Shown here in pieces: positions 3,743 to 48,662 of a stretch of 64,000 nt of DNA. Within the stretch, counting starts at the first letter, position 1. Each line of letters starts with the position of its first letter. The notes below the pieces were generated by a model. That model ran no database searches, was not told the DNA's origin, and saw nothing but the letters and a program-made list of their open reading frames with translations. Origin of the DNA: a virus; IMG/VR virus record IMGVR_UViG_3300021226_000189, one strand, 5' to 3'. A program made the position numbers and the translations under genes.

Positions 3743-5029
3743 TTAGTCTAAGATTGTGTTTTCCATGTACGCTCCCTTTAAAAGTGTCACTGTGCTCGTT
3801 GAAGTATTGGTTGCATTGTTAATAAATAATCTCAATACACCGCTCGTTGAAGGCTTTATGATTCCTATGTATTCGGCTGTCTGAGTTGATGTTCCAGTTG
3901 AATTAAATACACCAAAACTCTGATATGGAGAAGATTGCAATACAAAACTTTCTGTTTCAAACCCGGGCCTTTTGTAAAGCATTGATGAATCTGCCGCCGT
4001 TAAATTAAATGTTCCTAGTAATTGCCCACCGTGAGTAGATCCCGTGGTTCCAGTTATCTTAAACAAGCAATACAATCTATTTATTTTTCCTCCGACAACT
4101 GGTATTTCAAATCCTGTTGGGTTGAGTGATGCGCTACCAGTAGTAGTTGCATCAGATGTCAATACTGCACGCCAAAATGAATTTTCAACTAAAACTTGTC
4201 CTGTTCTTGTAACACCGTTATTTGAAACTGATGTTGTTCCTGTGATTGTTGGACTAGTCAAAGTCGCGTCATTGATCGTTGGCGTAGTTAAAGTAACACT
4301 AGTAGCAATCTTAGCACTCGTTACACTACCATCACTAGGCACAACCTGTCCCGCCACTAAAGCATTACTGGGACTAATCACAACAGCTTTAGCACCACTA
4401 GCAAGCGGATCTGTAAAAGTAATAGTTCCATTATTAACACTATAGTCAACAACAGGTTCTTGTAATACACCATCAATAGCAACAATCAATGCACTTGGGT
4501 TAATAAGATTTGTTGCTCCACTAATTGAGAAAGCACTTAATACACCATTACCTGTTAAAGTCGTACGAACAGGATCAACAACCGTTGCCGCCGATAGCCC
4601 ATTAATTGTTACTGATCCTGTGACAGCGAGTGTACCAGTAACATTAGCACCTTGAAAAGTTGGATTTGTATTAAACACCAAAGTACCACTACCAGTTTCA
4701 TCAGTTATTGCAGCTAATAAATTTGCTGAAGTTGGCGTTGCTAAAAAGGTTGCTACGTTTGTACCTAAACCTGAGACACCTGTTGATATTGGCAAACCAA
4801 CACAGTTTGTTAGTGTGCCGCTTGTTGGTGTGCCTAAAGCTGGGGTTGTAAAAGATGGTGATGTACTAAAAACAAGATTGCCAGATCCAGTTGTTCCAGC
4901 TACGGCTGATGCTAAATTTGCAGAGGTTGCATTGCCAAGAAATGTCTTCATACTCGATGCGACATTTAATTTAGCTGGAGCAATTGTATTGTCCAAAACT
5001 ACATCATTTGATATTTGGGTAATTGCCAT
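3743..5029 (-). CDS. Fibre / virion structural protein B
   Basis: N-terminus paralogous to protein A. Contains DETGSGTLVF repeat and a 92-aa VDPVRTT...SAKIA module. TAAATA at 5036-5041. Confidence 0.75.
   Translation of the reverse strand: MAITQISNDVVLDNTIAPAKLNVASSMKTFLGNATSANLASAVAGTTGSGNLVFSTSPSFTTPALGTPTSGTLTNCVGLPISTGVSGLGTNVATFLATPTSANLLAAITDETGSGTLVFNTNPTFQGANVTGTLAVTGSVTINGLSAATVVDPVRTTLTGNGVLSAFSISGATNLINPSALIVAIDGVLQEPVVDYSVNNGTITFTDPLASGAKAVVISPSNALVAGQVVPSDGSVTSAKIATSVTLTTPTINDATLTSPTITGTTSVSNNGVTRTGQVLVENSFWRAVLTSDATTTGSASLNPTGFEIPVVGGKINRLYCLFKITGTTGSTHGGQLLGTFNLTAADSSMLYKRPGFETESFVLQSSPYQSFGVFNSTGTSTQTAEYIGIIKPSTSGVLRLFINNATNTSTSTVTLLKGAYMENTILD
4304..4579 (-). repeat. 276-bp duplicated fibre module, copy 1 (copy 2 at 5846-6121)
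   Basis: Both copies translate to VDPVRTTLTGNGVLS...LINPSALIVAIDGVLQEP...VVPSDGSVTSAKIA. Confidence 0.95.
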
Positions 5030-5047: not shown

Positions 5048-8000
5048 TTAACGTTGAAATGTTGAATTCTCAAAAGAAACCCAATCAAACCATAGAGATC
5101 TAATTGCAGCAGTTCTACTTATTACGCGAGCATGAAAGCTATGTCTTAAAGCACTCCAATAATTTGGTGAATTTACTATTTCAGAAACAACTGTTATCCA
5201 ATTATTATTATTCCAATCTGCTTCTTGTATTACAAGATTAACGTTATTAGAATTAATACAAGTGAAATCAACAATATATCTTTTACCACTATTAAAATTT
5301 CCAGATTGAGGGGTATATTGTGTACTAAGAGTAGTATATGTACCACTATCGACAGTAGAACCATTTGCTCGAACGAATGTAAAGGCATTATTATCTTGTC
5401 CAGATCTATATGATAATCCAAAAACACCACTTGCTGCCCATCCTAATCCAATAATAATATCACTACTAATTGTATTATCTATCGCAAAACAAGCTCTAAA
5501 CCTACTACCTATAATAGACATTCCTCCAGCAGCCCTATGCCATAATGATCTCACATCTCCATTTGCCCCGGCAGTAGAAATCCTTTGAATGCCATAACAG
5601 AGAGGTGCCGCAGAACTATCATCAAGTAAACCAGTCCCGTTACCGCCAACACTTAATCCAGCAACCGAACCATCAAAATCGTTAAAGTATGCGACAACTG
5701 GGCGAGTACTAGCATTTCGAGAATTAACTTGTGCAACAAATTGTTCATTATTGAGCGAAAATGCTGTATTATTAATAGTACTACTTAAAGTACCATTATT
5801 AATGATTGGATTAGTTAAAACTGGCTCGCTAATACTAACACCACCTGCAATCTTAGCACTTGTTACACTACCATCACTTGGTACAACTTGACCTGCAATT
5901 AGTGAATTGCTCGGGCTAATAACAACTGCTTTTCTACCATTTGGTAATGGACTTGTAAAAGTGATTGTACCGTTATTAACAAGATAGTCAACACTTGGTT
6001 CCTGCAACACACCATCAATAGCAACAATCAACGCACTAGGATTAATTAAATTTGCTGCACCGTTAATTGCAAAGCTGCTTAACACTCCATTACCTGTTAA
6101 TGTTGTGCGAACAGGGTCAACTGGAGTCGCGACTGGCAATCCATTTGTAAAGATATTACCAGCGGAAATATTCTGCGAACTTACACTACCATTGATAGTA
6201 ACATTACCAGTTACATTAAAACCTGATAGTTCGTATTGCTTGATATCTACAACAGTAATGTTTGCAGAAAGAGCGTCGAGTTGAGTTGTATAGATGCGAT
6301 CTGCTGATAAAGCACTTAGTGTTAGTGTATTGGAATTTTCCCAGACACCCGCAGCACCATTATACTTCAAGACATCATTAGCAGATACGCTCGTGATTCT
6401 AACATTATGAAGTTCATCTATCTCATACCCATTATCAACCTTGACGAAAATTTTACCTTGGTTTGAATGAGCATAAACAACAAAGCCAACTACAACGGTA
6501 TGATTTGGTGCTTGTGGTTTAACCTTTGTTAATACACCCGGTGTTGTAGGTGATAGATAAAGTACATCACCATCCAGCCATGTCTCACCTTGAAGTGATC
6601 CAGTTGTGTTGATACCTCTAACTAACCCACTTGTTGTAACAAATCCTTCTTGATTGAGTGTAATATTCTCTGTTACAAGACCGATAGTATCAACGCTATT
6701 CGGGTCATTATTTGCTTGTGCTAATACAATAGCGAGACGTTGACCTTGAGCACCACCTTCCGCTGTAGAACGAATACGCACAACACGATACTGGGATTCA
6801 AGAAGATTAGCACCTGTTTTATTAACAACACGCGCTACTGTCTCTTGACCGATTTGGAGAGTTACATTGCCACCTTTGAGACCAAGATCGAGAGTTCCAT
6901 CTTGATCATTCCATGTTAGCTGACCTACTCCTGCTGTTAACCCTGCACCTGTATTGAAACCAATTCTATTCGCTGAAAGCAATCCAGTTACAGATACATC
7001 ACCTGTAACAGTTCCGCCAGAAAGTGGTAGATAATTAAGAGGGGGTAAACCGATATATTCATTAGCAGAAATAGTTCCCTTAACGATGAGATCACCATTT
7101 ATTGTCCCACCATCCTGATATTGCGTAGCGTTAGTTCCACCACCAGAAGCATAAACAGCTACATATTTTCTTAAATCTGTTTTATAATTTTCGAATTTGT
7201 CATGGATTTTTTTATTCCATTCTTTTTCGATGGAGTCCCAATCTTTAACGATTGGTTCGCCTTTTTTAGATTCCAAGATATACTCTACAGGTTTTTCATT
7301 TTTAATTTTACGAATTTCAGTGAGTAAATTTTCCCTACTTTCTTGTATCAAATTTTGAAAATAGCTACGAGCCTCATCAGTAATATCCAATGTTTCTTCT
7401 TTTATTAAAGATAATTTTTCATCGAAATACTGTGTTATTTCCTGCTCCGTGTCGGCGATTTTCTTTTCAAATTCTTCAGAAATTTTTTCAAATTCTCCAG
7501 AAATCTCTACGATTTTTTTATCAACATTCCCGACACGAGAAAGTGCTTTCTGAACTCCTTTATTCAAAGAATTATTGAGTTCGATATTAGCATCACGAAT
7601 CGCATCAATTTCCTTGTTGACATCTTCCAACAAGGAAGCGTCAGCTTTTTTATTCAGCTTATTATTTAAGTTTTTATCAATTTCTGAAACTTTCTCTACA
7701 ATCTCAAGAGCGATATCATTGAGTTCTTTATCCACTCTAGGGTTGATATTAGTTTCATATAATTCTTTGACTAATTTTTTTACTGATTTATCAATCAGTT
7801 TGGAAGAATTTTCGAAATTATTTTCAAGAGATTCTTTTAGATTATCAGCAATATCTTGAATTTTTAAATCTACGCTTTCACGGATTTCTTCAAATTTGTA
7901 ATCATTATCCGATATTAATTCTTTTCTAATTTTATTAGAAATGTTAGTAAATTCATTTACAAGTTTTTCTCTTGCAGATTCCAAATACTCTTTGAGAGCT

Positions 8001-8497
8001 TTTTCCTTCTTATTACTCTCATTTTTAATTTCCCGTATTTTTTTTAATTTATTATTTTCGAGAATTTTCAGAGAATTTTCAGTCGCTTCTCTTTTTATTT
8101 TATTGATTTCTTTGATGATCTGTTCTTTTTTATCATCTATAATTTCAACATTAGAACATTCTTCGATGATATTTTGAATCACTTCATCTTCCTGCTCATC
8201 CGCATTTTCAATTTTAGATTCAAAAATTTCGACTGGTTCGCTTTCAGAGTTGAAATAAATTTCTTGTTTTCCTTTCAGAAGTAAGAAAGGATACTGCGCT
8301 TTCGCGTCTCCATCTTCCACCAGAATAGAAACAATCGGATTTCCATTTTCTTCGGAAATCTTTTCAACTACATATTTATTTTCGTTTATCTGCACCTCAA
8401 AAACACCGAAAAAGACTTCTGAAAAATCTTTAACTTGTAAGATGTTTAGAGGAGAGTTAGACGAGGTGATTTTCACCTCTTCGCTAAACAGTCTCAT
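5048..8497 (-). CDS. Large structural protein: long E/K coiled-coil followed by fibre modules
   Basis: aa ~90-445 are E/K/I/L heptad-rich, then ASGGG linker and G/T-rich fibre repeats, with a second copy of the 92-aa module. TAAATA at 8504-8509. Confidence 0.75.
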   Translation of the reverse strand: MRLFSEEVKITSSNSPLNILQVKDFSEVFFGVFEVQINENKYVVEKISEENGNPIVSILVEDGDAKAQYPFLLLKGKQEIYFNSESEPVEIFESKIENADEQEDEVIQNIIEECSNVEIIDDKKEQIIKEINKIKREATENSLKILENNKLKKIREIKNESNKKEKALKEYLESAREKLVNEFTNISNKIRKELISDNDYKFEEIRESVDLKIQDIADNLKESLENNFENSSKLIDKSVKKLVKELYETNINPRVDKELNDIALEIVEKVSEIDKNLNNKLNKKADASLLEDVNKEIDAIRDANIELNNSLNKGVQKALSRVGNVDKKIVEISGEFEKISEEFEKKIADTEQEITQYFDEKLSLIKEETLDITDEARSYFQNLIQESRENLLTEIRKIKNEKPVEYILESKKGEPIVKDWDSIEKEWNKKIHDKFENYKTDLRKYVAVYASGGGTNATQYQDGGTINGDLIVKGTISANEYIGLPPLNYLPLSGGTVTGDVSVTGLLSANRIGFNTGAGLTAGVGQLTWNDQDGTLDLGLKGGNVTLQIGQETVARVVNKTGANLLESQYRVVRIRSTAEGGAQGQRLAIVLAQANNDPNSVDTIGLVTENITLNQEGFVTTSGLVRGINTTGSLQGETWLDGDVLYLSPTTPGVLTKVKPQAPNHTVVVGFVVYAHSNQGKIFVKVDNGYEIDELHNVRITSVSANDVLKYNGAAGVWENSNTLTLSALSADRIYTTQLDALSANITVVDIKQYELSGFNVTGNVTINGSVSSQNISAGNIFTNGLPVATPVDPVRTTLTGNGVLSSFAINGAANLINPSALIVAIDGVLQEPSVDYLVNNGTITFTSPLPNGRKAVVISPSNSLIAGQVVPSDGSVTSAKIAGGVSISEPVLTNPIINNGTLSSTINNTAFSLNNEQFVAQVNSRNASTRPVVAYFNDFDGSVAGLSVGGNGTGLLDDSSAAPLCYGIQRISTAGANGDVRSLWHRAAGGMSIIGSRFRACFAIDNTISSDIIIGLGWAASGVFGLSYRSGQDNNAFTFVRANGSTVDSGTYTTLSTQYTPQSGNFNSGKRYIVDFTCINSNNVNLVIQEADWNNNNWITVVSEIVNSPNYWSALRHSFHARVISRTAAIRSLWFDWVSFENSTFQR
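5846..6121 (-). repeat. 276-bp duplicated fibre module, copy 2
   Basis: Same length as and near-identical translation to 4304-4579. Confidence 0.95.
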
Positions 8498-8540
8498 CTT
8501 TATTATTTAGTGGGATAGTTAATATGTCAATTAGCAATGA

Positions 8541-9683
8541 TTAAAAAACAGACATAAGTGGCATATCGTAATCACCGTAACCACCATCGAATAACAATTC
8601 TTCTAGTTCTTTTTTCTCAGTTATACCTTCTTGTAGAACCGTAGAACCATCCATGCTTCCACCACCTGGTAGAGTGACTCCTGTGATTTTCGTTAAAACT
8701 CTACCCCACATTATTTTACAAATCGCGGTCGAGTATTCCAAGACCCATTTTTCTTTTATCAAATCTCTCAAAGGTCTTTCAACGTAACACGTTAACAAAC
8801 CATAGAAACGAGTATTTCTCGGTTGAGGGATCAAACGTAAATACTGAGTTCTTGGATCGAAATAAATATCCCTTCTCGTGGCAAATACTTTTTCTCGGGT
8901 GTCGATCCAATCTTTCACGGTATGCCAAGAAAGGATATCGAATCCATAGTTACCCAAACTATAAGCATGAAAGCTCTGTTGTGCCATGGTTTGTTCAACA
9001 GAAAATAAGGTATTGACACCAGTTGTCGAACCCTCTTCGAAAGAAATAACATCAACCACTTTGCGATAATCCATAACATCATAATCAAACATATTATTGA
9101 TAGTTTTCACATCATCTTGTGGTTCACATTGGATGGTGAAAGGTTTTTGATACGATTCTTTGAATAAAGATGTCAGTGTTTGGTCAAATGAAGTAATTAA
9201 ATCGTATGTAGCTTTATCAATAATTTGCATACTTTGAATACCCTCTTCAGGGATAACAGCACTTAAAGATGATGACGAATTGAAATATGTTTTAGGAATC
9301 GTTGAAAGTGATACAAATAATGAGTCAGGAAATTTAATTTCTGAATCTGGTTGTGGTCCTGTTCTTTTATTTTGAAGTTTTTCAGATGGAGTGTAACCAG
9401 AATTAGCGACAGTAAAAAGAGTATCCAGACGCACACCTTTATTTTTATCGTATATATCACTATTAAAAATCAAATATTCTTTCGTATAACCAGCATATTT
9501 TGTATAGAAATCAATAGCCATTGAAATAGCTTCATGTAATTGATCATAATGTAATTCCACGTTGATCATTGGATGACCCAATGTTCTCAAAATCCTTTCA
9601 CCTAAACGCTGATAGCACTCAATTTTAGAATTGAGATTTGTTGACATGAAAGCTGAAATTGGTTCGATTTGGCAAAGACTCAT
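8541..9683 (-). CDS. gp13: Neck protein (T4 gp13-like)
   Basis: Motifs RTLGHPMINVELHYDQLHEAI and WVLEYSTAICKIMWG...GVTLPGGGSMDG. Confidence 0.85.
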   Translation of the reverse strand: MSLCQIEPISAFMSTNLNSKIECYQRLGERILRTLGHPMINVELHYDQLHEAISMAIDFYTKYAGYTKEYLIFNSDIYDKNKGVRLDTLFTVANSGYTPSEKLQNKRTGPQPDSEIKFPDSLFVSLSTIPKTYFNSSSSLSAVIPEEGIQSMQIIDKATYDLITSFDQTLTSLFKESYQKPFTIQCEPQDDVKTINNMFDYDVMDYRKVVDVISFEEGSTTGVNTLFSVEQTMAQQSFHAYSLGNYGFDILSWHTVKDWIDTREKVFATRRDIYFDPRTQYLRLIPQPRNTRFYGLLTCYVERPLRDLIKEKWVLEYSTAICKIMWGRVLTKITGVTLPGGGSMDGSTVLQEGITEKKELEELLFDGGYGDYDMPLMSVF

Positions 9684-12946: not shown

Positions 12947-13022
12947 ACTTATTATTTAAGGAGATTTGTCAATTATTCAATTAAATATCGTTCGGATAAT
13001 ATTATTTATCTCAAAATGTTTT

Positions 13023-39951: not shown

Positions 39952-40385
39952 GTAATAAAAATGCGTATTATGTGAACTCCAGAGAGTTTCGAGAACAGTT
40001 GATGAATTATTATGAGTCTGATAAGATGACTAATGAACTCGCCACGAATATTGTTAAGATAGCAGAGGGTCTATCATATAACCATCGCTTTATTCGATAC
40101 TCTCGAAGTTGGAAAGAGGAAATGGTCGGTGATGCAATTGTGAAGATGTATCACGCTTTGGAGAAAAAGCTTTATAACATTGAATCAGAATTCAACCCCT
40201 TCTCATATTTTAATCGAATAGCATGGAACGCTTTCACGAATCGTATCAATAAGGAAAAGAGTCAACATGAGGGGTTGAACGAATACAAAGAGATAGTATA
40301 CATGGAGCATATGTCTGGTCCCGATTCAATGGGTCATGTGTATGTGAAACCAGTGATGGAAGGAGACGAATACGACGATGAATAA
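39948..40385 (+). CDS. gp55: Late sigma factor (T4 gp55)
   Basis: YVNSREF, IAEGLS, EEMVGDAI, NPFSYFNRIAWNAF. Confidence 0.9.
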   Translation: MSNKNAYYVNSREFREQLMNYYESDKMTNELATNIVKIAEGLSYNHRFIRYSRSWKEEMVGDAIVKMYHALEKKLYNIESEFNPFSYFNRIAWNAFTNRINKEKSQHEGLNEYKEIVYMEHMSGPDSMGHVYVKPVMEGDEYDDE

Positions 40386-41079
40386 ATTATTGAAATTGAT
40401 TGGATTCGAAAGAAGAGGTTATGATTCGGACACTTATCATTTTAAATGGGGGGAAATTTCATGGCATCCGAAAAAATGGGAATTATCTTTAAGATATTGT
40501 AATTTTGGGTGTTGTGAATCTCATGATCTTTTAATTATTAAACCTTTGTTTTGCTCTATTTACATTCATCTGTCGGATGAATATGATAGACCTTGGGATG
40601 ACAACGGATTTAGTTATGGATTTTATATTTATGATTGGAACTCTCTGAATTTGGGATGGGGTGAACACTCTAAATCTTGGGATTTCCCATACATAGCGAG
40701 AGAATGGAAAAGAACTGAAATATATGATACTGATGGTGTTCATTGGTTTACTGAAAAAAAAGGTGATAAGTCATGGGATGAAAAATATGAAATCCAAAAT
40801 AATATTAAAAAATCTTATCCTTATAAGTATGTTTTGAAAAACGGTCACATTCAGGAAAGAATAGCCAAAGTTCATGTATCAAACATGGTGTGGTCACGTA
40901 AATGGTTTCCTTTTTTAGAGGTTAATAGGAGATGTATTGATGTTGATTTTTCTGATGAAGTTGGAGAAAGAACTGGTGAATGGAAAGGTGGTTGTATTTC
41001 ATGTGGTTATGAATTGAGAGAAGGGGAAACACCCGAAGAATGTTTGAGAAGAATGGAAAAAGAAAGGAAATTTGAATAA
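40378..41079 (+). CDS. Hypothetical protein (Trp/Tyr-rich)
   Basis: 233-aa ORF overlapping its neighbours. Confidence 0.65.
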   Translation: MNKLLKLIGFERRGYDSDTYHFKWGEISWHPKKWELSLRYCNFGCCESHDLLIIKPLFCSIYIHLSDEYDRPWDDNGFSYGFYIYDWNSLNLGWGEHSKSWDFPYIAREWKRTEIYDTDGVHWFTEKKGDKSWDEKYEIQNNIKKSYPYKYVLKNGHIQERIAKVHVSNMVWSRKWFPFLEVNRRCIDVDFSDEVGERTGEWKGGCISCGYELREGETPEECLRRMEKERKFE

Positions 41080-42103
41080 TAATATGATTAAGAAAACAAA
41101 AGTAGCTATTTTTTCTGACCTACATTTAGGTCTTTATGGAAATTCAACGGAATGGCATGACATCGCTCTTAAATGGGCAGATTGGATCACTGCTGATTTG
41201 AAGAAGAAAAAGATTTTTGATATCTTTTTCCTTGGTGACTTTTTCCACAATCGTTCAGAGATTTCCGTTCAAACAATTCATGTTGCATCTGAATTGATTG
41301 CTAAATTCAAGAATTTTAATATGTTCATGGTTATTGGCAACCATGATGCGTATTACAAGAATCGTGCCGATGTTCATAGCTTGGGTTTCCTTAAAGGTCA
41401 CGATAACATTACAATCATCGACCAGAATTTGGAAGTGGATGCGTTCGGTAAAAAATTACTGTTTGTCCCATGGAATCACGAATTACCAGAAGGTAAATTT
41501 GACCACATTTTTGGACATTTTGAAATCCAAACATTTCAGATGAACAATTACAAGGTTTGTGATCACGGATTCCAAGTAATGGATTTCTTAGCATCCCGAA
41601 CCACTAATGTTTGGTCTGGTCACTTCCATACTAAGAGTATTAAGAAATACAATGAAGGAACGATTCGATACATTGGTAACACCTTCCACCATGACTTCAA
41701 TGATTGTGGGGACGATAAGGGTTATCACATTTTGGATTTGGAAGATGATTCTGTAGAATTTGTGAAAAATACGGTGTCTCCTGAATTCATTAAAATCCCT
41801 CTGACTAAAATAAAAGATTATTCCATGGAGGATGTGGAAGGAAATATCATCAAATTCATAATTGACAAAGACATTGAAGATGATAAGGTAGAGAAGTTCA
41901 AGATTTACTTGTCCAATTTTGCACCTTTCCGTCTAACCACGGAATACAACGTGGCGACCAAGACAATCGGAGATGTTGAACAAGTCGATTCCATTGATAT
42001 CGTGGGAATGTTTGATGAATTTTACGAACAATTGAATCTGGATGAAGAACAACTGAAACGAGTGAAGAAAATAAACGACGAACTTTATGAAAAATGTAAG
42101 TGA
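41072..42103 (+). CDS. gp47: Recombination endonuclease subunit (T4 gp47, Mre11/SbcD-like)
   Basis: SDLHLG, LGDFFH, IGNHD, GHFE, SGHFH. Confidence 0.95.
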   Translation: MNNNMIKKTKVAIFSDLHLGLYGNSTEWHDIALKWADWITADLKKKKIFDIFFLGDFFHNRSEISVQTIHVASELIAKFKNFNMFMVIGNHDAYYKNRADVHSLGFLKGHDNITIIDQNLEVDAFGKKLLFVPWNHELPEGKFDHIFGHFEIQTFQMNNYKVCDHGFQVMDFLASRTTNVWSGHFHTKSIKKYNEGTIRYIGNTFHHDFNDCGDDKGYHILDLEDDSVEFVKNTVSPEFIKIPLTKIKDYSMEDVEGNIIKFIIDKDIEDDKVEKFKIYLSNFAPFRLTTEYNVATKTIGDVEQVDSIDIVGMFDEFYEQLNLDEEQLKRVKKINDELYEKCK

Positions 42104-42311
42104 TAGAGAAAAATACCATGCACAGCATATTATCGATCATATTTTGTATAATTGTTCGTTGAGTTCGTTGAGTTCTTTGAAAGAACTTGGAATTATACAC
42201 GATCTTGATATTAAGATAATTGACACCGATGATAGTATGATTTGTAATATTTATGTAACACTCAATACCCCCCTTGACAATATTAAAATAAATTTTGAAA
42301 TAAATGCGTAA
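42087..42311 (+). CDS. Hypothetical protein
   Basis: 74-aa ORF between gp47 and gp46. Confidence 0.5.
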   Translation: MKNVSDREKYHAQHIIDHILYNCSLSSLSSLKELGIIHDLDIKIIDTDDSMICNIYVTLNTPLDNIKINFEINA

Positions 42312-43221
42312 GATTTTATATAAACAACTTAAAGGTCAAAATTTCCTCAGTGTGGGAAATGATCAGATTGTAATTGATTTCCAATCTGGTTTCAATCTGA
42401 TTACTGGTAAGAATATTGATAATCCAGACCGTGTGAACGGTATTGGAAAATCCTGTATCGCTGAATTGTTCTACTATGCTTTGTTTGGTAAAACCATTCG
42501 TGAAATAAAAAAGGAATTCATCATCAACAATGTCACTAAAGGAAAGGGTGCTATCGAGCTTACTTTTGATGTGGAGACTGACAATGATACGCAGACATAC
42601 ACAATCAAGCGACAACTCAAACCAAGCTCTGTGACGCTCCTGCGAGGTGAAGAAGATATCACCAAGGACTCCATCGCAAATACGGACAAATTCATATGTG
42701 ATCTGATCGGTTCCAATCCTGTCATTTGTCGTAGCTGTGATATTCTATCTCTTTCGGATAACATCCCATTCATGGCGAAGAAACCAGAGGAGAAGCGCAA
42801 ATTCATCAATGATATTTTCTCTTTGGAAGTCTTTGGTAAGATGAGCAACGAATTGAAGAATCTGATTCGTGAGAACAAATCTGAAATGAATATCTCTTCT
42901 GCCAAGTTGGAAGAAATCAACAACACTTTGGAAACTCTGAATAAACAACAGGAGGATTATCTGAAGAAAGTTCAAGAACGGGAAGCAATTCTCGAAGAAA
43001 AACGTAAAGAAATTCAGCAGAAAATTGATGAAACGTCTGAAAAGATTGCTAAAATATCCATTACGGATGTTTCAGCAATCCAAACAGAAAAGGACAAATA
43101 CGAAGCTGCTTGGGATAAGTTGGATGGAAAGATTGCAGATGTGAATAGTCAAATCTCTTCCAAAGAAACTTTGAGGAAGTTGAAAGTAAAAGAAATTGAA
43201 CAAATAAATAATGTGATATGA
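42304..43221 (+). CDS. gp46: Recombination ATPase gp46 (Rad50/SbcC-like), N-terminal half
   Basis: NFLSVGN, Walker A G.N......NGIGKS, LYYALFGK, then coiled coil. Stops before the CXXC hook. Confidence 0.9.
   Translation: MRKILYKQLKGQNFLSVGNDQIVIDFQSGFNLITGKNIDNPDRVNGIGKSCIAELFYYALFGKTIREIKKEFIINNVTKGKGAIELTFDVETDNDTQTYTIKRQLKPSSVTLLRGEEDITKDSIANTDKFICDLIGSNPVICRSCDILSLSDNIPFMAKKPEEKRKFINDIFSLEVFGKMSNELKNLIRENKSEMNISSAKLEEINNTLETLNKQQEDYLKKVQEREAILEEKRKEIQQKIDETSEKIAKISITDVSAIQTEKDKYEAAWDKLDGKIADVNSQISSKETLRKLKVKEIEQINNVI
43205..43210 (+). promoter_or_regulatory. Late promoter TAAATA for the inserted GNAT gene
   Basis: 7 nt upstream of the ATG at 43218, the same spacing as other late genes. 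Confidence 0.6.
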
Positions 43222-43688
43222 TAATTTTAAATGAAAATGAGATAATGTGGGAATCATACGCTGGTGGAATTGAATATCATATCAATTCTGACGAAGAATC
43301 CGATGAAATTAAAATAGAAGCTTTCTATAGAGGTGATAAGATTGGAGATGCTATTGCAAAAATATTATTCGGAGATTTTTATTATGAGTTTGATGATGTT
43401 ATGAGTGAGGATGACATTTATGAATTATTTCCAGATGATTCTTTAGCGAAAATAGAACATGTTGAGGTTAGTAAGCAATATCGAGGAAGTGGTGTAGCAA
43501 AGGAGATGATGAATCGTTTGTTAAGGGAATTGGAGCGACAAGGGTTTAAACAATTTTATCTTAATGCCTCACCAATGGGGATTGATAAAGGATTTAATAA
43601 ACCAGAATTGGTAAAATTTTATCAAAAATTTGGATTTAATACTTTATTAGACCAAGGAGTAAACACGTTAATGATTAAAAAATTATGA
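43218..43688 (+). CDS. GNAT-family acetyltransferase inserted within gp46
   Basis: Motif A IEHVEVSKQYRGSGVAKEMM; LNASP; LVKFYQKFGF. Confidence 0.85.
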   Translation: MIILNENEIMWESYAGGIEYHINSDEESDEIKIEAFYRGDKIGDAIAKILFGDFYYEFDDVMSEDDIYELFPDDSLAKIEHVEVSKQYRGSGVAKEMMNRLLRELERQGFKQFYLNASPMGIDKGFNKPELVKFYQKFGFNTLLDQGVNTLMIKKL

Positions 43689-44557
43689 TTAAATGTGATA
43701 AATGCCTCCAAGAAATACCTCATACCCATGTGGAACATCTGGAGAAGATGAAGGAACAATATCAATCCGAATTGGATGATATTGTTAAAGAAATTGAAGA
43801 TTTGAATCATGGTAAAAGTGATTTGATGGTCAAGAAATCTAAAATTCAAAATAAAATCGGGGAATTTCAAACCCAAATCAATGAAGCCAAAGTCACCAAG
43901 CAGAAATTGGAAGGTTTGGAAAACAGCCTAAAACAATACAAGGAGTCTTTGGACAATTTGAAGTTGGATGAATTACCCAAACCCAATTTTGAGGAGAGTA
44001 TCCGAAACACTTGGGAAAGACAAAATGTGGAAAACGATAATTTCCGAATGCTTAAACAGAAATCAGATGATTATGAAATCTGCAAGTTCGTTCTCGGGGA
44101 AGAAGGTGTCCGTAGCTTTGTGGTGAAGAGACTTCTTTCCATGATGAACGCAAGCATTCAGCAATACATCAACGATCTTGGTATGACAATTCGTTGTAAA
44201 TTTGATGAATACTTCGACGAGCAACTCTCCAATGATAAAGGTAAAGAGATTTCCTACTGGAACTTGAGCGGTGGCGAGCGTAGAACAGTTGATCTCGCGT
44301 GTGCGTGGGCATTCAAGGATTTGAAACGCAAGATTTCGGGAGTGTCGTCTAATGTTGAATGGATTGACGAAGTATTCGATTCGGCTTTTGATGAACGTGG
44401 TTTCGATCTTCTGGTAGAACTGATGAAACAAAGAATTGATAAAAATTCTTTATCTGTCTACGCAATCTCACACAGAAAAGAAATGGAAAAACATGTCACA
44501 GGAGAAATTATCTTCCTTGAGAAAGAAAATGGTGTAACTAGAAGAACGTCTAATTGA
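43685..44557 (+). CDS. gp46: Recombination ATPase gp46, C-terminal half
   Basis: Starts MIKCDKC (zinc hook). Signature LSGGE, Walker B WIDEVFD, H-loop AISH. Confidence 0.9.
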   Translation: MIKCDKCLQEIPHTHVEHLEKMKEQYQSELDDIVKEIEDLNHGKSDLMVKKSKIQNKIGEFQTQINEAKVTKQKLEGLENSLKQYKESLDNLKLDELPKPNFEESIRNTWERQNVENDNFRMLKQKSDDYEICKFVLGEEGVRSFVVKRLLSMMNASIQQYINDLGMTIRCKFDEYFDEQLSNDKGKEISYWNLSGGERRTVDLACAWAFKDLKRKISGVSSNVEWIDEVFDSAFDERGFDLLVELMKQRIDKNSLSVYAISHRKEMEKHVTGEIIFLEKENGVTRRTSN

Positions 44558-44586
44558 CAAACAAAAGCGAATGGGTAATTATTAAC

Positions 44587-45774
44587 ATGTTTAATAGTCA
44601 ACCATTCGCTTCTCCTTTCCCTACAAATCCATTTCAGGTTTCAAATAAACCAAAAGAAGAACCTAAAAAAGGTAATAATTACTTAAACTTTGTTGCTGAT
44701 CGACAAGGATGTGGACAATGGAGAGTGGGATGGCCTGAGTTGCATATCAATATGAATAATCTTGGGGAGTCAACATCTCTCACGAAGATGATTCTTGATA
44801 AAAATTGGTTTAGAGATGTTAAGACCGTTAAATTACAGAGACAAGCATCTACACCTCAAAAACAATACTTTGAATTTGTTAAAAGTATTCAACAGGAAAT
44901 GGGATTCAAGATCATTTATGAAGTAGATGATGTTGTTTTCCGCGAAGAAATTCCTGATTACAACTCAGGGAAAGAATCGTTTGATAATGATGAAATCCGT
45001 CAAAATTGTGTTGATATGATGCAAATGGCAGATGAAGTTACGGTTACATGTAAATTTATGCGAGATCTGTTTATCGAAAAAACAGGTCAACATAAAATAT
45101 CAGTGGTACCTAATTTTGCACCTGAATGGTGGATCGGGCATTATTATGATGCTTACAAAATCAAGCAAAATTATGATAAGAATCGTAAAAGACCTCGAAT
45201 TTTATATTCTGGTTCAGGTGCACATTTCGATATTAAAAATGGTGGGCAAGACGACTTTTCTCATGTCCTAAAATTCATTATTGATAATAGATATAAATAT
45301 CAATTTATTTTCATTGGTGCTTTTCCTCCTCAATTACACCCATATATTCAAAATAGAGAAATCGAATTCCATCCTTGGCAGACATTAACCAATTATCCAA
45401 AATTTATTTCTGGATTGAATGTCCAACTTACAATTGCCCCACTGATGGATAACAATTTCAACAAATCCAAATCAGATATCAAATACATTGAGGGTGCAAT
45501 TTTAGGTATTCCCTGTATGTGTCAGGATTTGGTGACTTACGAAGATGCTCCCGATTTTTTGAAATTTAAGGATTCAGAAGATTTGGCACTGAAAGTGGAG
45601 CATTTATTGAATTATAAAAATCGCGATAGGTATCATAATCTATCCAAAGAGTTGAGAAAACTTGGGGAAACGAGATTTCTCGAAAGACCAGAAAACATTG
45701 GAGCGTTTCTTGAAGCGATGAACACACCATTTAACGATCCATCTCGTAGATTTATGAAATATTGGAACGATTGA
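44587..45774 (+). CDS. GT-B fold glycosyltransferase-like protein
   Basis: GCGQWR, YEVDD, ADEVTV, IAPL..N.FNKSKSDIKYIE. ATG at 44587 follows TTGACA at 44554. Confidence 0.7.
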   Translation: MFNSQPFASPFPTNPFQVSNKPKEEPKKGNNYLNFVADRQGCGQWRVGWPELHINMNNLGESTSLTKMILDKNWFRDVKTVKLQRQASTPQKQYFEFVKSIQQEMGFKIIYEVDDVVFREEIPDYNSGKESFDNDEIRQNCVDMMQMADEVTVTCKFMRDLFIEKTGQHKISVVPNFAPEWWIGHYYDAYKIKQNYDKNRKRPRILYSGSGAHFDIKNGGQDDFSHVLKFIIDNRYKYQFIFIGAFPPQLHPYIQNREIEFHPWQTLTNYPKFISGLNVQLTIAPLMDNNFNKSKSDIKYIEGAILGIPCMCQDLVTYEDAPDFLKFKDSEDLALKVEHLLNYKNRDRYHNLSKELRKLGETRFLERPENIGAFLEAMNTPFNDPSRRFMKYWND

Positions 45775-45775
45775 C

Positions 45776-45803
45776 TTGACAATTGAACACATGATGCCAT
45801 AAT
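45776..45803 (+). promoter_or_regulatory. sigma70-like promoter TTGACA-N16-CATAAT with TGn
   Basis: Upstream of the zinc-ribbon gene and DNA polymerase. Confidence 0.65.
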
Positions 45804-46135
45804 TGGATATGGCGTTTTTACATTGCGAAAACTGTGGTTGGAGTCAGGATGATTTCTATTCGGAAGACGGTTATAATCCTGCGAAATATCTTTCTAGTTG
45901 GAATAACTATTTGTGTGGAAAGGATTCACATAGACTCGACGAATTATTTTCAGATGATTACCAATGGTTGAAAGATGAGGGATATGTTTCTACTAGAGAA
46001 GTCTTGGCAAGACAATATGAAAAATATGCCAAAAGAATTCGTAATATGAAATGGGTCACTTGGGAGCAGTGGCAGAAAGATAAAGATACTGCCGTCTGCC
46101 CTCAATGCGGTGAAAGAAATTTTGATATAGACTAA
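45803..46135 (+). CDS. Zinc-ribbon hypothetical protein
   Basis: CENC near the N-terminus and CPQC near the C-terminus. Confidence 0.65.
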   Translation: MDMAFLHCENCGWSQDDFYSEDGYNPAKYLSSWNNYLCGKDSHRLDELFSDDYQWLKDEGYVSTREVLARQYEKYAKRIRNMKWVTWEQWQKDKDTAVCPQCGERNFDID

Positions 46136-46136
46136 A

Positions 46137-48662
46137 ATGTATAGAAATTGTGTTTATAACAATCGTGAACGTAAGATTTTCTTATGGACATGGAACGAGA
46201 ATGGGGAACGTGTTAAAGAGGAACACGATTTCAAACCATACATTCTTTTAGAGGATAAGAATGGTAAAGAGAAGTCCATCTATGGAACTTCCCTCAAAAA
46301 AAGGGAATTTGCCTCCTCGTATGATCGAAATAACTTCGTAAAGGATAGTAATATCAAGAGAATTTATGAGAATCTTCCCCCATACCAACAATTCCTGATT
46401 GATAATTTTTGGTCTGTTTGTGAGGATGACAATTTCTCACAATATCCTCTGAAAGTCGCTTACTTGGATATTGAGTGTCCCCATCCTGATAAATTTCCCG
46501 AACCAGAAACCGCAGAAGCAGTGATAAATCTGATTACTGTATTTGATTCATTTTCCAAAATGTATCATGTTTTTGGTTTGAAGAATTACCACACGACGAG
46601 AGATGATGTGCGGTATTATTTTTGTAAATCAGAGGAAGATCTACTCAAATCGTTTATCAAATATTTTAGGAAAGAACAGTTCGATATCATTAGTGGATGG
46701 AACATATCAGCATTCGATATTCCTTATTTGGTAAATCGTATCACATTTCAATTAGGTAAAGAATGGGCAGATAAATTGTCACCGATTGAAAGAATTTATG
46801 AAAAGACCAATCCAAATGGTAAATTCGGTATGCCATCTAAAGAGTATGTGATCGAAGGTATTTCTATTTTGGATTATTACGTCATGTATATGAAATTCAG
46901 CTTGGAAAAGCAAGAGTCATATAAACTGGATAATATTGGAGAAGTTGAATTAGGTGTTAATAAAATTCAACACGAGGGTAATTTGTGGGAATTGGCTAAA
47001 AAAGATTGGTATACCTACACGGACTACAACATTCGAGACGTTGAAATCTGTGTTAAATTGGATGAGAAAAAGGGATATATCAATCTCCTTCGATTCCTAG
47101 CATACACAGGTCTGTGTGACTTGGAGAATGCTATCAAAACGGTTCCACCAATGAATGGTGCGATTGCCATACGTGCGCGTATGCGCGGAGAGTATATTCC
47201 TACGTTTATTCGTCCTGTGACGGACTACAAAGCACCTGGAGGTTACGTTGCAGAACCAAGAGTGGGATTCGCTGAGAATATCGTATCATTTGATGCCAAC
47301 TCTCTATATCCATCTGTGATGATTTCTCTCAATCTCTCACCTGAGACTAAAATTGGTAGAGTTGAGAAAGACGGTGATAAGGTGAAAATTCATCATGTTT
47401 CTGGTAGGATTTTTGAAATGACTAAAGAGAACTTTACCAAGTTTATTAAAGAGGAAAAGGCAGCTTTGACCAAAGCTGGATTCTTATTCTCTCAGAATAA
47501 GCGTGGTCTTGTTCCTGAGTTCTTGGATAACTTGTATTCCAAACGTAAGGAGATGAAAAACAAGATGTTGGAATCTCGTAAGAAAGGAGATAAAGAAGGG
47601 GAACAGAAATTTGATAGCATCCAATATGCTTATAAAATCCACCTCAATTCCTTGTATGGTTACATGCTTAACAAATACGCTCCTCTCGGAGACGAAGATA
47701 TTGGAACATCTGTAACTTTGACAGGTCAAGCAGTTATCAAAAAGAGTAACGATTTATTCATGGAATACCTATCGAAATATTTCGACAATAAAGAAGAAAT
47801 TGAAAAGTCATTGATATACAATGATACTGATAGCTTTTACACTTCTTTGAAGATATTTGAAAAAATTGGATATAAATTGAAAGATGGTGACAAAGTTTCT
47901 GATAAATTTTATGGATTATGCCAAGATGTGGAAGATTTTGTGAATAATGGAATCACTGAATGGGCAAAATCTAACCTCAGAAGTATCGATCCAAGATTTG
48001 TATTCAAAAGAGAAAGTATTTGCGATAAAGGTATTTTCATCGGTAAGAAATATTACGCACTTCACAAATTAGATGAAGAGGGTGTCGTCATGGATAAATT
48101 CAAATATATTGGTGTCGATGTTGTGAAAACGACAATGCCTAAGAAAGTAAAACCATATGTCAAGAAAGTCATTGAACATATGATCATGACTCAATCGTTA
48201 AAAGAAACGAATGATCTTTTCAATGAAGCATACGAAGAATTTAAGAAATTACCAATCACAGATATTGCTAAAATTTCTGGTATGAATAATTATGATGAAT
48301 ATTCAGCTAGATGTAACGGTATGAATACTGTAAAAGGTATGCCAAGTCACCTTAAAGCAGCGTATTATCATGATTTGATCACGGATCAAAATGGGTGGTC
48401 TTCTAAATATGATAAATTCAAATCAGGGGATAAAGTTCGTATGGTGTATGTGAAGAAGCCGAACAAATATAATTTGGAAATGATCGGATTCAAAGGAGAA
48501 TGGCCTTCTGAATTTGATAATATTTTCACTGTTGACTATGAGAAAATGTTTGGTAAGATATTCTACGCTGCAATTGAGAGATTCTACGAAGCAGTCGGAT
48601 GGAAACTTAGAAAACCATCAGAAAATCTGACCGTAGAACTTGAAGACTTATTTGGAGAATAA
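46137..48662 (+). CDS. gp43: Family B DNA polymerase (T4 gp43)
   Basis: Exonuclease DIEC, GWN...FDIPY; polymerase FDANSLYPS, KIHLNSLYG, YNDTDS, KKYY. Confidence 0.97.
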   Translation: MYRNCVYNNRERKIFLWTWNENGERVKEEHDFKPYILLEDKNGKEKSIYGTSLKKREFASSYDRNNFVKDSNIKRIYENLPPYQQFLIDNFWSVCEDDNFSQYPLKVAYLDIECPHPDKFPEPETAEAVINLITVFDSFSKMYHVFGLKNYHTTRDDVRYYFCKSEEDLLKSFIKYFRKEQFDIISGWNISAFDIPYLVNRITFQLGKEWADKLSPIERIYEKTNPNGKFGMPSKEYVIEGISILDYYVMYMKFSLEKQESYKLDNIGEVELGVNKIQHEGNLWELAKKDWYTYTDYNIRDVEICVKLDEKKGYINLLRFLAYTGLCDLENAIKTVPPMNGAIAIRARMRGEYIPTFIRPVTDYKAPGGYVAEPRVGFAENIVSFDANSLYPSVMISLNLSPETKIGRVEKDGDKVKIHHVSGRIFEMTKENFTKFIKEEKAALTKAGFLFSQNKRGLVPEFLDNLYSKRKEMKNKMLESRKKGDKEGEQKFDSIQYAYKIHLNSLYGYMLNKYAPLGDEDIGTSVTLTGQAVIKKSNDLFMEYLSKYFDNKEEIEKSLIYNDTDSFYTSLKIFEKIGYKLKDGDKVSDKFYGLCQDVEDFVNNGITEWAKSNLRSIDPRFVFKRESICDKGIFIGKKYYALHKLDEEGVVMDKFKYIGVDVVKTTMPKKVKPYVKKVIEHMIMTQSLKETNDLFNEAYEEFKKLPITDIAKISGMNNYDEYSARCNGMNTVKGMPSHLKAAYYHDLITDQNGWSSKYDKFKSGDKVRMVYVKKPNKYNLEMIGFKGEWPSEFDNIFTVDYEKMFGKIFYAAIERFYEAVGWKLRKPSENLTVELEDLFGE

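Follow-up and report, generated by a model that had tools for sequence, protein, structure and literature searches.

The Rad50/SbcC ATPase is usually pictured as one chain whose arm folds back on itself at a zinc hook. Engineered two-chain Rad50 heads were reportedly made for crystallography by Hopfner et al. in 2000, and in these the N and C lobes, carrying short stubs, are said to form an active ATPase. Viruses are known to encode Mimivirus-type Mre11-Rad50 fusion proteins (PMC3175470), and in T4-type phages some enzymes are "genes in pieces": nrdA of Aeromonas phage Aeh1 is split by mobE, and the T4 topoisomerase genes 39/60 are separated by mobA (PMC2988022). In the split gene 43 of Aeromonas phages 25 and 44RR, according to the passage of PMC2988022 that cites Petrov et al. 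2006, one site holds either an untranslated spacer or a seg endonuclease. The hyperplastic regions of T4-type genomes are in turn subject to promoter/stem-loop (PeSL)-mediated modular shuffling, in which some modules have their own promoter (PMC2839356, PMC4122927). Here we analyze gp46, the T4-type Rad50/SbcC, in a 64,000-nt stretch of viral DNA (IMG/VR record IMGVR_UViG_3300021226_000189; one strand; the whole stretch is called the window below), where it is encoded as an N-terminal half (gp46N) and a C-terminal half (gp46C) with a GNAT acetyltransferase gene between them. The locus is a case of T4-type "genes in pieces" in a previously undescribed form, to which the window adds the GNAT cargo and an embedded, probable late signal; we found no description in the literature of a natural Rad50/SbcC/gp46 split at the hook.

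Results

The three open reading frames (ORFs) lie in tandem on the + strand and encode gp46N (305 aa), GNAT (156 aa), and gp46C (290 aa) (Table 1). Both junctions are 4-nt ATGA overlaps (43218-43221 and 43685-43688), such that the stop codon of gp46N occupies 43219-43221 and gp46C begins on a fresh ATG at 43685. A first-pass annotation, made by a model from the letters alone, had described these ORFs, their overlaps, and the MIKCDKC start of gp46C, and all of this was confirmed. gp46N matched AAA_23 (1.7e-14; 55.4 bits against a cut-off of 27 bits) and covered positions 293-605 of phrog_77 (SbcC) and positions 4-288 of the NCBIfam Rad50 model NF003034; gp46C covered phrog_77 positions 629-950, and its residues 3-90 corresponded to the center of NF003034 (positions 437-521). 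A motif scan found LSGGE, WIDE, and ISH in gp46C, all downstream of its MIKCDKC start. In a sequence-profile search gp46N matched the Rad50-related PDB entries 3aux and 3qf7, and no solved structure was returned for gp46C; a computation of heptad periodicity gave no clear signal. Thus the locus has the P-loop lobe, the C-lobe motifs, the CxxC hook, the Rad50 fold, and an adjoining Mre11-type nuclease, and what it lacks, in common with all split alleles, is the single polypeptide that folds back at the hook. By homology, the window's gp46 is a member of the Rad50/SbcC/gp46 family, and by predicted architecture it is a two-chain variant.

We took advantage of an intact relative (L025), which is colinear with the window and 92% identical to it in the N half and 91% in the C half, to locate the break. 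An alignment-based AlphaFold model of this gp46 had a mean pLDDT of 85 (a single-sequence fold was poor, with a pLDDT of 42, and was set aside), and Foldseek matched it first to Mre11-Rad50 (3av0_B; E 2.5e-18, TMt 0.75) and then to 7zr1 and Escherichia coli SbcC (7yzp). In the model, helices 175-300 (ascending) and 319-470 (descending) flank the hook cysteines C310 and C313, and the only low-confidence stretch of the apex is 303-307. In the alignment, the N chain of the split alleles ends at L025 D306 and the C chain begins at G307; because D306/G307 falls inside the low-confidence stretch, the model places the break within the flexible apex loop, three residues ahead of the first hook cysteine. 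The split tail and head together contribute 7 + 3 = 10 residues at the junction, compared with 11 in intact alleles, and the last seven codons of the N tail were replaced, not point-mutated. This comparison with uninterrupted relatives, which the first-pass annotation had put forward as a check, yielded both the position of the break and the replacement of the tail residues.

We were able to recover the N-GNAT-C layout with its 4-nt overlaps from at least 19 JGI contigs, 5 ENA contigs, and additional Logan contigs, all independently assembled, in which GNAT identity was between 54% and 98%. The stretch 43039-44100 is covered without interruption by a 1785-nt contig belonging to a different study, and further contigs bridge each junction. 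Pairwise ratios of nonsynonymous to synonymous substitution (dN/dS) between split alleles were 0.04-0.10 for gp46N, 0.06-0.13 for gp46C, and 0.07-0.14 for GNAT, with dS near or above 1; both gp46 halves are under strong purifying selection. Consistent with this, the ATPase motifs are intact, and the catalytic residues and both hook cysteines are invariant across split alleles. In a relative of 207,489 bp that has terminal repeats and is rated 100% complete by CheckV, the two halves are the sole SbcC matches, and the same is true of two further genomes (87-89% complete) and of the window itself. T4 gp46 is essential (PMC5105663); a phage with its sole copy split must therefore use both chains.

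These data leave a practically negligible probability that the split is a misassembly, or that gp46 has become a pseudogene whose function is supplied from elsewhere. The data are solely metagenomic, and one GNAT-bearing 195-kb contig (L072, at 4087-4216) carries an extra frame break near the N terminus of gp46N, where the gene is called at 262 aa; this break reflects either a sequencing error or a truly damaged allele. Against such an explanation stand the many independent assemblies and bridging contigs, the strong purifying selection on both halves with their invariant motifs, and the absence of a second SbcC/Rad50 from the complete and near-complete genomes. The first-pass annotation had seen in gp46 a natural split at the hook into two coupled chains, and had named a misassembly or another, intact gp46 as the ways in which it could be wrong. 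Its reading is supported on each count: contigs of other studies bridge both junctions and the layout recurs in independent assemblies, selection has preserved both halves, and no intact copy was found in the complete or near-complete relatives or in the window.

Phages of the T4 family are known for introns and for the bypass of gene 60 (PMC2988022), which lends some plausibility to the idea that full-length gp46 is restored by an intron, an intein, translational bypass, or frameshifting over the insert. We consider this extremely improbable. An Rfam scan found no intron-like RNA at E<=1, in agreement with the earlier remark that no intron core would fit in the insert, and the insert encodes a conserved protein on which purifying selection acts. 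Moreover, the eight kinds of cargo described below differ in length and in frame relative to gp46C, and each would need a removal mechanism of its own. The split alleles, for their part, carry a stop and an ATG that evolved as dedicated codons. As for an intein, it would be in frame and stop-free, and the insert here is bounded by stop and start codons.

Intact and split alleles were both common among close relatives (74-92% identity), with 15 intact and 14 split in a first, unbiased scan; a GNAT gene was found within 6 kb in 0/68 of the related IMG/VR loci retrieved with gp46N. Intact alleles read ...EIDKFSSVEDGIQCDKC at the junction. Every split allele has a common derived junction instead, consisting of a tail such as EQIEKVI, EQINNVI, or DQINKAI, a stop, and then MIK-CDKC, and it is what lies between stop and start that varies. 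This slot holds a 42-nt spacer with no ORF in L002, an ORF of 72 aa in L001 that forms an in-frame fusion with the C half, ORFs of 78 aa (L101), 108 aa (L009 and L011), or 206 aa (L104), two ORFs of 93 + 71 aa (L100), a 102-aa ORF in many contigs, and GNAT, which is 156 or 195 aa depending on the allele. There are thus at least seven non-GNAT ORF cargos and at least nine slot states overall. Each cargo begins on an ATG overlapping the gp46N stop (ATATGA), and for several the end lies within the right arm's conserved AAATT-ATG-A. No family was found in Pfam, PHROG, or NCBIfam for the non-GNAT cargos, no cargo was related to another, and c206 in particular had no detectable relatedness to GNAT. 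Two of these alleles have peculiarities of their own. In L001 (6915-7991) no stop separates the cargo ORF from the C half, so that a 358-aa fusion of cargo, hook, and C half is readable alongside the normal MIK start; and L100, a 2-kb contig, switches to the N terminus of ribonucleotide reductase directly after MIKCDKCLQEIPH (1740-2009), is probably an assembly chimera, and was used for its junction only.

Because the same derived junction carries other cargos or a bare spacer, GNAT did not make the split, which, judged from this comparison of alleles, is older than GNAT. The first-pass annotation had proposed the reverse, namely that a GNAT cassette inserted into an intact gp46 and split it by a route marked by a 9-bp direct repeat. 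GNAT does sit exactly at the break, joined by ATGA overlaps and flanked in the window by AATGTGATA, but at least seven other ORF cargos and the empty 42-nt spacer are found at the identical junction, only 6-7 nt of the repeat are left in other GNAT alleles, and GNAT identity is uncoupled from flank identity; we regard insertion of GNAT into an intact gene as very improbable. The repeat itself exists as described (Table 1), and it is its significance that does not stand. At full length it is confined to the window and a 98%-identical relative, the longest word shared in other GNAT alleles being 6-7 nt, and its two copies arise from codons for N-V-I and K-C-D-K, a coincidence of codons. This shrinkage ruled it out as a target-site duplication.

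Split alleles do not form one clade, by approximately unbiased (AU) tests on the N-body tree (p 0.015) and the C-body tree (p 1e-5), and the two trees are mutually discordant. Sliding identity of the window against 13 relatives swings blockwise between 50% and 100%, a profile that reads as a mosaic. Compared with the window, L076 is 96-100% identical over ~43045-43630, which comprises the N tail and GNAT, 79-86% upstream, and 59-91% downstream, a pattern that indicates a recent exchange tract. In L084 the GNAT gene is 72% identical to that of the window and the N and C halves 55% and 60%, and L105 combines a GNAT identity of 54% with ~89% in the N half. Because the split alleles are not monophyletic and the identity is mosaic, the simplest account, we infer, is that junction and cargo move by homologous recombination through the conserved gp46 flanks between co-infecting relatives; this replaces the insertion route that the first-pass annotation had left unspecified. 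The cargos come from a pool of small genes that the phages themselves possess. A homolog of c102 (80%) lies directly upstream of an intact gp46 (L034, 5715-6014), with weaker copies elsewhere, and a paralog of c108 (65%) is found ~7 kb off in the same contig, directly behind the DNA polymerase gene (L088, 9854-10186). The neighboring gaps are also variable in relatives, from ~0 to 1.6 kb between gp47 and gp46 and from ~0 to 2.2 kb between gp46 and the glycosyltransferase gene.

Contigs from runs X5/X6 (window 43095-43806) show duplicated arms. In one, the N tail is followed by 382 other bases, after which the final 70 nt of that tail appear again and lead into GNAT; in the other, which lacks GNAT and joins 43226 to 43685, the first ~115 nt of the C half occur twice, with 249 bases in between. 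Duplicated arms around an extra insert would fit unequal exchange, and these contigs may represent tandem-cargo or exchange intermediates or, metagenomic contigs being weak evidence, assembly artifacts.

We also considered, as a tentative view that we hold at less than even confidence, that the hook break is an integron-like landing pad inside an essential gene, with the split maintained by cargo hitch-hiking and not by any benefit to Rad50. The arms of such a pad would be indispensable gp46 coding sequence conserved in all co-infecting relatives, which would guarantee homologous exchange of the contents, and the cargo would be shielded from deletion since its imprecise loss would kill gp46. 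Cargos would in this way travel through the phage population as cassettes, some with a late promoter in the gp46N tail codons, and the duplicated-arm contigs would be intermediates of exchange.

A separate question is what made the split, and here a free-standing homing endonuclease that was later lost, with other ORFs taking its place, is compatible with a two-chain gp46 and an exchangeable slot but strikes us as rather doubtful. This is a documented route to split genes in T4-type phages (PMC2988022), and the last seven N-tail codons were replaced rather than mutated. In addition, L001 shows that such elements invade gp46 in this clade: following gp46C it carries, at 7991-9523, a gene for a 337-aa endonuclease-like protein (helix-turn-helix repeats; DUF7487, 1.3e-25; a weak TnsA-like N-terminal match), then a 124-aa ORF, and then a displaced leftover of the gp46 3' end, 37 codons long and 95% identical to the window. 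The arrangement resembles the result of a homing-type invasion in which the element supplied a divergent gp46 3' end of its own. Against this origin, 0/8 cargo types have a nuclease domain, and IMG/VR, the metagenome scan, and the protein collections yielded no split allele whose slot contains an endonuclease.

The TAAATA within the last gp46N codons (Table 1) occurred in 6/6 GNAT alleles, whose identity spans 54-100%, as well as in the c206 allele, and was invariant while adjacent bases varied; its spacer to the ATG is 7 nt in 6/7 of these alleles and 10 nt in L079. It was absent from 8/8 alleles with another cargo or none. Window-wide, TAAATA ends 3-9 nt before the ATG of 19/81 putative genes compared with 1.2 expected (mode 5 nt; for example, at the minus strand starts 12947-12965, 8498-8516, and 1411-1429), and the genes it precedes include those for the portal, the prohead protease, the head-tail adaptor, and a tail-fiber-like protein. 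The full T4 late consensus TATAAATA was not enriched in the window, where only the shorter TAAATA was, and only next to starts; sigma-70-like promoters and terminators were at shuffle level in 41000-46200. Because a gp55 homolog is present and the word is enriched before virion genes, we read the TAAATA at 43205-43210 as probably a gp55-type late-promoter core overlaid on the last gp46N codons, from which GNAT is probably expressed late. Given the short spacer, late transcripts may have little or no leader. The earlier suggestion that GNAT has a TAAATA of its own thus probably identified a real signal, one kept in all GNAT alleles and enriched before virion genes.

The GNAT protein scored above the cut-offs of three Pfam families, Acetyltransf_10 (36.4 bits; cut-off 23.6), Acetyltransf_7 (35.7; 27), and Acetyltransf_1 (34.9; 20.7), and has the acetyl-CoA motif A (R/Q-x-x-G-x-G/A) as RGSGVA at residues 89-94. 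An ESM Atlas model of the exact protein (pTM 0.80) had a TM score of 0.89 to a Uroviricota GNAT cluster that is mainly viral. Its best solved sequence relative is Naa50, a protein N-alpha-acetyltransferase (E 3.8e-6, over the generic acetyl-CoA core only); other similarity was to dopamine N-acetyltransferase, and RimI was far under its cut-off. Relatives at 42-46% identity sit among small ORFs in unrelated phage contigs.

GNAT could be tied functionally to gp46 by acetylating gp46/gp47 or a protein they meet, with its position ensuring co-expression. The tight translational coupling on both sides and the protein N-alpha-acetyltransferase activity of Naa50 would favor such a tie. However, near-identical gp46 halves host unrelated cargos or none in the same slot, distant GNAT relatives occur in unrelated contexts, the Naa50 similarity is limited to the generic acetyl-CoA-binding core, and GNAT seemingly has its own late signal, gp46 being an early/middle function in T4. 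We therefore judge a specific action on gp46/gp47 improbable, because the cargos are interchangeable. Nothing beyond position links GNAT to gp46; the earlier proposal that it might acetylate the complex keeps a small probability, and we read GNAT as a passenger.

Taken together, it is very likely that gp46 is here a working natural two-chain Rad50, translationally coupled, and that its intercistronic gap is an exchangeable slot, a single judgment that covers both parts. Several points weigh against it. Two-chain assembly and the ATPase/nuclease activity are argued from conservation and general knowledge of Rad50; short alignments and saturation (dS ~1 or more) could account for part of the tree incongruence; and none of the eight cargo ORFs has a nuclease domain in Pfam or PHROG. 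The TAAATA-bearing alleles are related and so are not independent observations, which makes their agreement a matter of consistency and not proof, and the word may serve in translation initiation instead of acting as a promoter.

We also looked at how far the split extends. An exhaustive search of 1.84 billion representatives with the C half returned ~4800 relatives, and the best 150 were nearly all intact proteins of ~600 aa. Apparent independent splits in distant relatives were rejected, since every shorter candidate that was traced proved to be an artifact: a ~445-aa class consisted of 5'-truncated ORFs at contig ends, P0059 came from low-coverage scaffolds with N-gaps, P0115 begins at a contig edge, P0161 is interrupted by a scaffold N-run, and P0017 is a fragment of an intact-type gene. 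In Pantoea phage Phynn, what had appeared as two features under the match were an intact gp46 and a small upstream ORF.

The gene order around the locus is T4-like, running from the gp55 late sigma factor through an Acb3-like protein, gp47, a 74-aa ORF, the split gp46, and the glycosyltransferase-like gene to the gp43 polymerase. No DNA-level match was found among INPHARED phages, and the nearest phage isolates are ~30% identical in gp46 and gp43; related sequence occurs in aquatic, freshwater, or riverine metagenome runs from 15 studies. Between gp55 and gp47, a 233-aa protein (40378-41079, +) matched Pfam PF25187, "CBASS inhibitor Acb3" (2.2e-41), and is a candidate anti-defense gene placed like T4 47.1/alpha-gt. 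Within gp46, two stretches stood out. A block in the descending arm (43790-43850; gp46C residues ~36-55) is only 55-60% identical to every relative examined, and the 3' region (~44275-44360; joined codons ~531-560) falls into two allele classes with ~83% and ~53% nucleotide identity to the window, the divergent class including L001, which bears the endonuclease-like gene.

Table 1 Features of the split gp46 locus, in window coordinates
Feature	Position	Strand	Basis or remark
gp47 (Mre11/SbcD-type nuclease, gp46 partner)	41072..42103	+	Metallophos 5.5e-07; phrog_100 SbcD-like 5.8e-64
74-aa ORF occupying the gp47-gp46 gap	42087..42311	+	No family match (Pfam, PHROG)
gp46N, P-loop lobe and ascending coiled-coil arm of Rad50/SbcC, 305 aa	42304..43221	+	AAA_23; phrog_77; NF003034
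P-loop NGIGKS, gp46N residues 45-50	42436..42453	+	N45, G48, K49 invariant, G46, S50 nearly so (split-allele N-half alignment)
Derived gp46N tail EQINNVI and stop, left arm of slot	43198..43221	+	Stands where intact alleles have DKFSSVED (junction alignments, split vs intact)
TAAATA, probable gp55-type late-promoter core within gp46N codons	43205..43210	+	7 nt 5' of GNAT ATG
GNAT acetyltransferase cargo, 156 aa, mainly viral GNAT family	43218..43688	+	Three Pfam GNAT families above cut-off
gp46C, zinc hook, descending arm, signature motif, Walker B, and H-loop lobe, 290 aa	43685..44557	+	phrog_77; NF003034
Zinc hook CDKC, gp46C residues 4-7	43694..43705	+	Both Cys invariant in split alleles and 22 intact relatives
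ABC signature LSGGE, gp46C residues 194-198	44264..44278	+	Motif scan; invariant in split-allele C-half alignment
Walker B WIDE, gp46C residues 226-229	44360..44371	+	Motif scan; D228, E229 invariant in split-allele C-half alignment
H-loop ISH, gp46C residues 261-263	44465..44473	+	Motif scan; invariant in split-allele C-half alignment
9-bp word AATGTGATA, two copies	43210-43218 and 43692-43700	+	Judged a codon coincidence
Glycosyltransferase-like gene, right-hand syntenic anchor	44554..45774	+	phrog_7162 2.3e-20; follows gp46 in nearly all relatives

Discussion

In the model we propose, chain N would consist of the P-loop lobe and the ascending helix, and chain C of the hook, the descending helix, the signature, Walker B, and the H-loop. 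The two chains would assemble like the halves of any Rad50, with complementary ATPase lobes and antiparallel helices, and the zinc hook would be supplied by chain C alone. The break would have arisen once, before GNAT arrived, and the split allele would circulate beside intact gp46 in a freshwater T4-like phage clade, crossing gp46 backgrounds by homologous recombination. Like the other gaps between genes in these genomes, the intercistronic gap would serve as a slot that swaps small accessory ORFs from the phage gene pool, and in the window it would hold a phage-family GNAT that brought the TAAATA late-promoter-like signal with it.

A conserved natural cut before the hook that is polymorphic in the population would imply that covalent continuity at the apex is dispensable in vivo. 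Pairs of intact and split alleles that are up to ~92% identical provide matched material for examining the role of apex linkage in arm mechanics and in hook-head signaling. The locus also suggests that splitting an essential gene can create a new, stable accessory-gene slot that is exchanged by recombination, and that regulatory signals can overlay the coding tail of the upstream half. For annotation, such halves should not be called pseudogenes.

The closest relatives by descent are T4 gp46/gp47 and bacterial SbcCD, with which the locus shares the family, the synteny (gp55 ... gp47, small ORF, gp46 ... gp43), all motifs, and the adjoining Mre11-type nuclease; it differs from them in consisting of two polypeptides broken three residues before the hook, where the canonical protein is one folded-back chain. 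In gene structure it resembles Aeh1 nrdA/mobE and T4 39/60, in which an essential enzyme that is contiguous in relatives is encoded by two ORFs with a gene between them and start/stop overlaps suggest coupling. As in those "genes in pieces", gp46 here has two conserved ORFs and is contiguous in relatives (intact up to 92% identity, in L025). In contrast to those cases, where a homing endonuclease is the interrupter, there is no nuclease domain among the eight cargos, the slot is sometimes empty, and close relatives carry split and intact alleles side by side in circulation. The split gene 43 of phages 25 and 44RR, in the account cited above, offers a parallel to the 42-nt spacer and the ORF cargos in that one split site has differing contents; it involves another enzyme and, in that account, two known states, compared with at least nine here together with clear recombinational exchange.

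With PeSL shuffling the locus shares the exchange of small accessory ORFs at fixed positions by recombination in conserved flanks, but here an essential gene provides the flanks with its coding ends, in place of a promoter and stem-loop, and sigma-70-like promoters and terminators are not enriched. The insert has the defining features of neither an intron or intein nor a PeSL cassette. The engineered Rad50 heads are said to show that the lobes are active without a covalent link at the apex; they are laboratory truncations from which most of the arm and the hook were removed, whereas the full arms and hook are kept here. Finally, like the Mimivirus-type fusion, the split gp46 is a natural viral rearrangement of Mre11/Rad50 gene architecture, by fission here and by fusion there.

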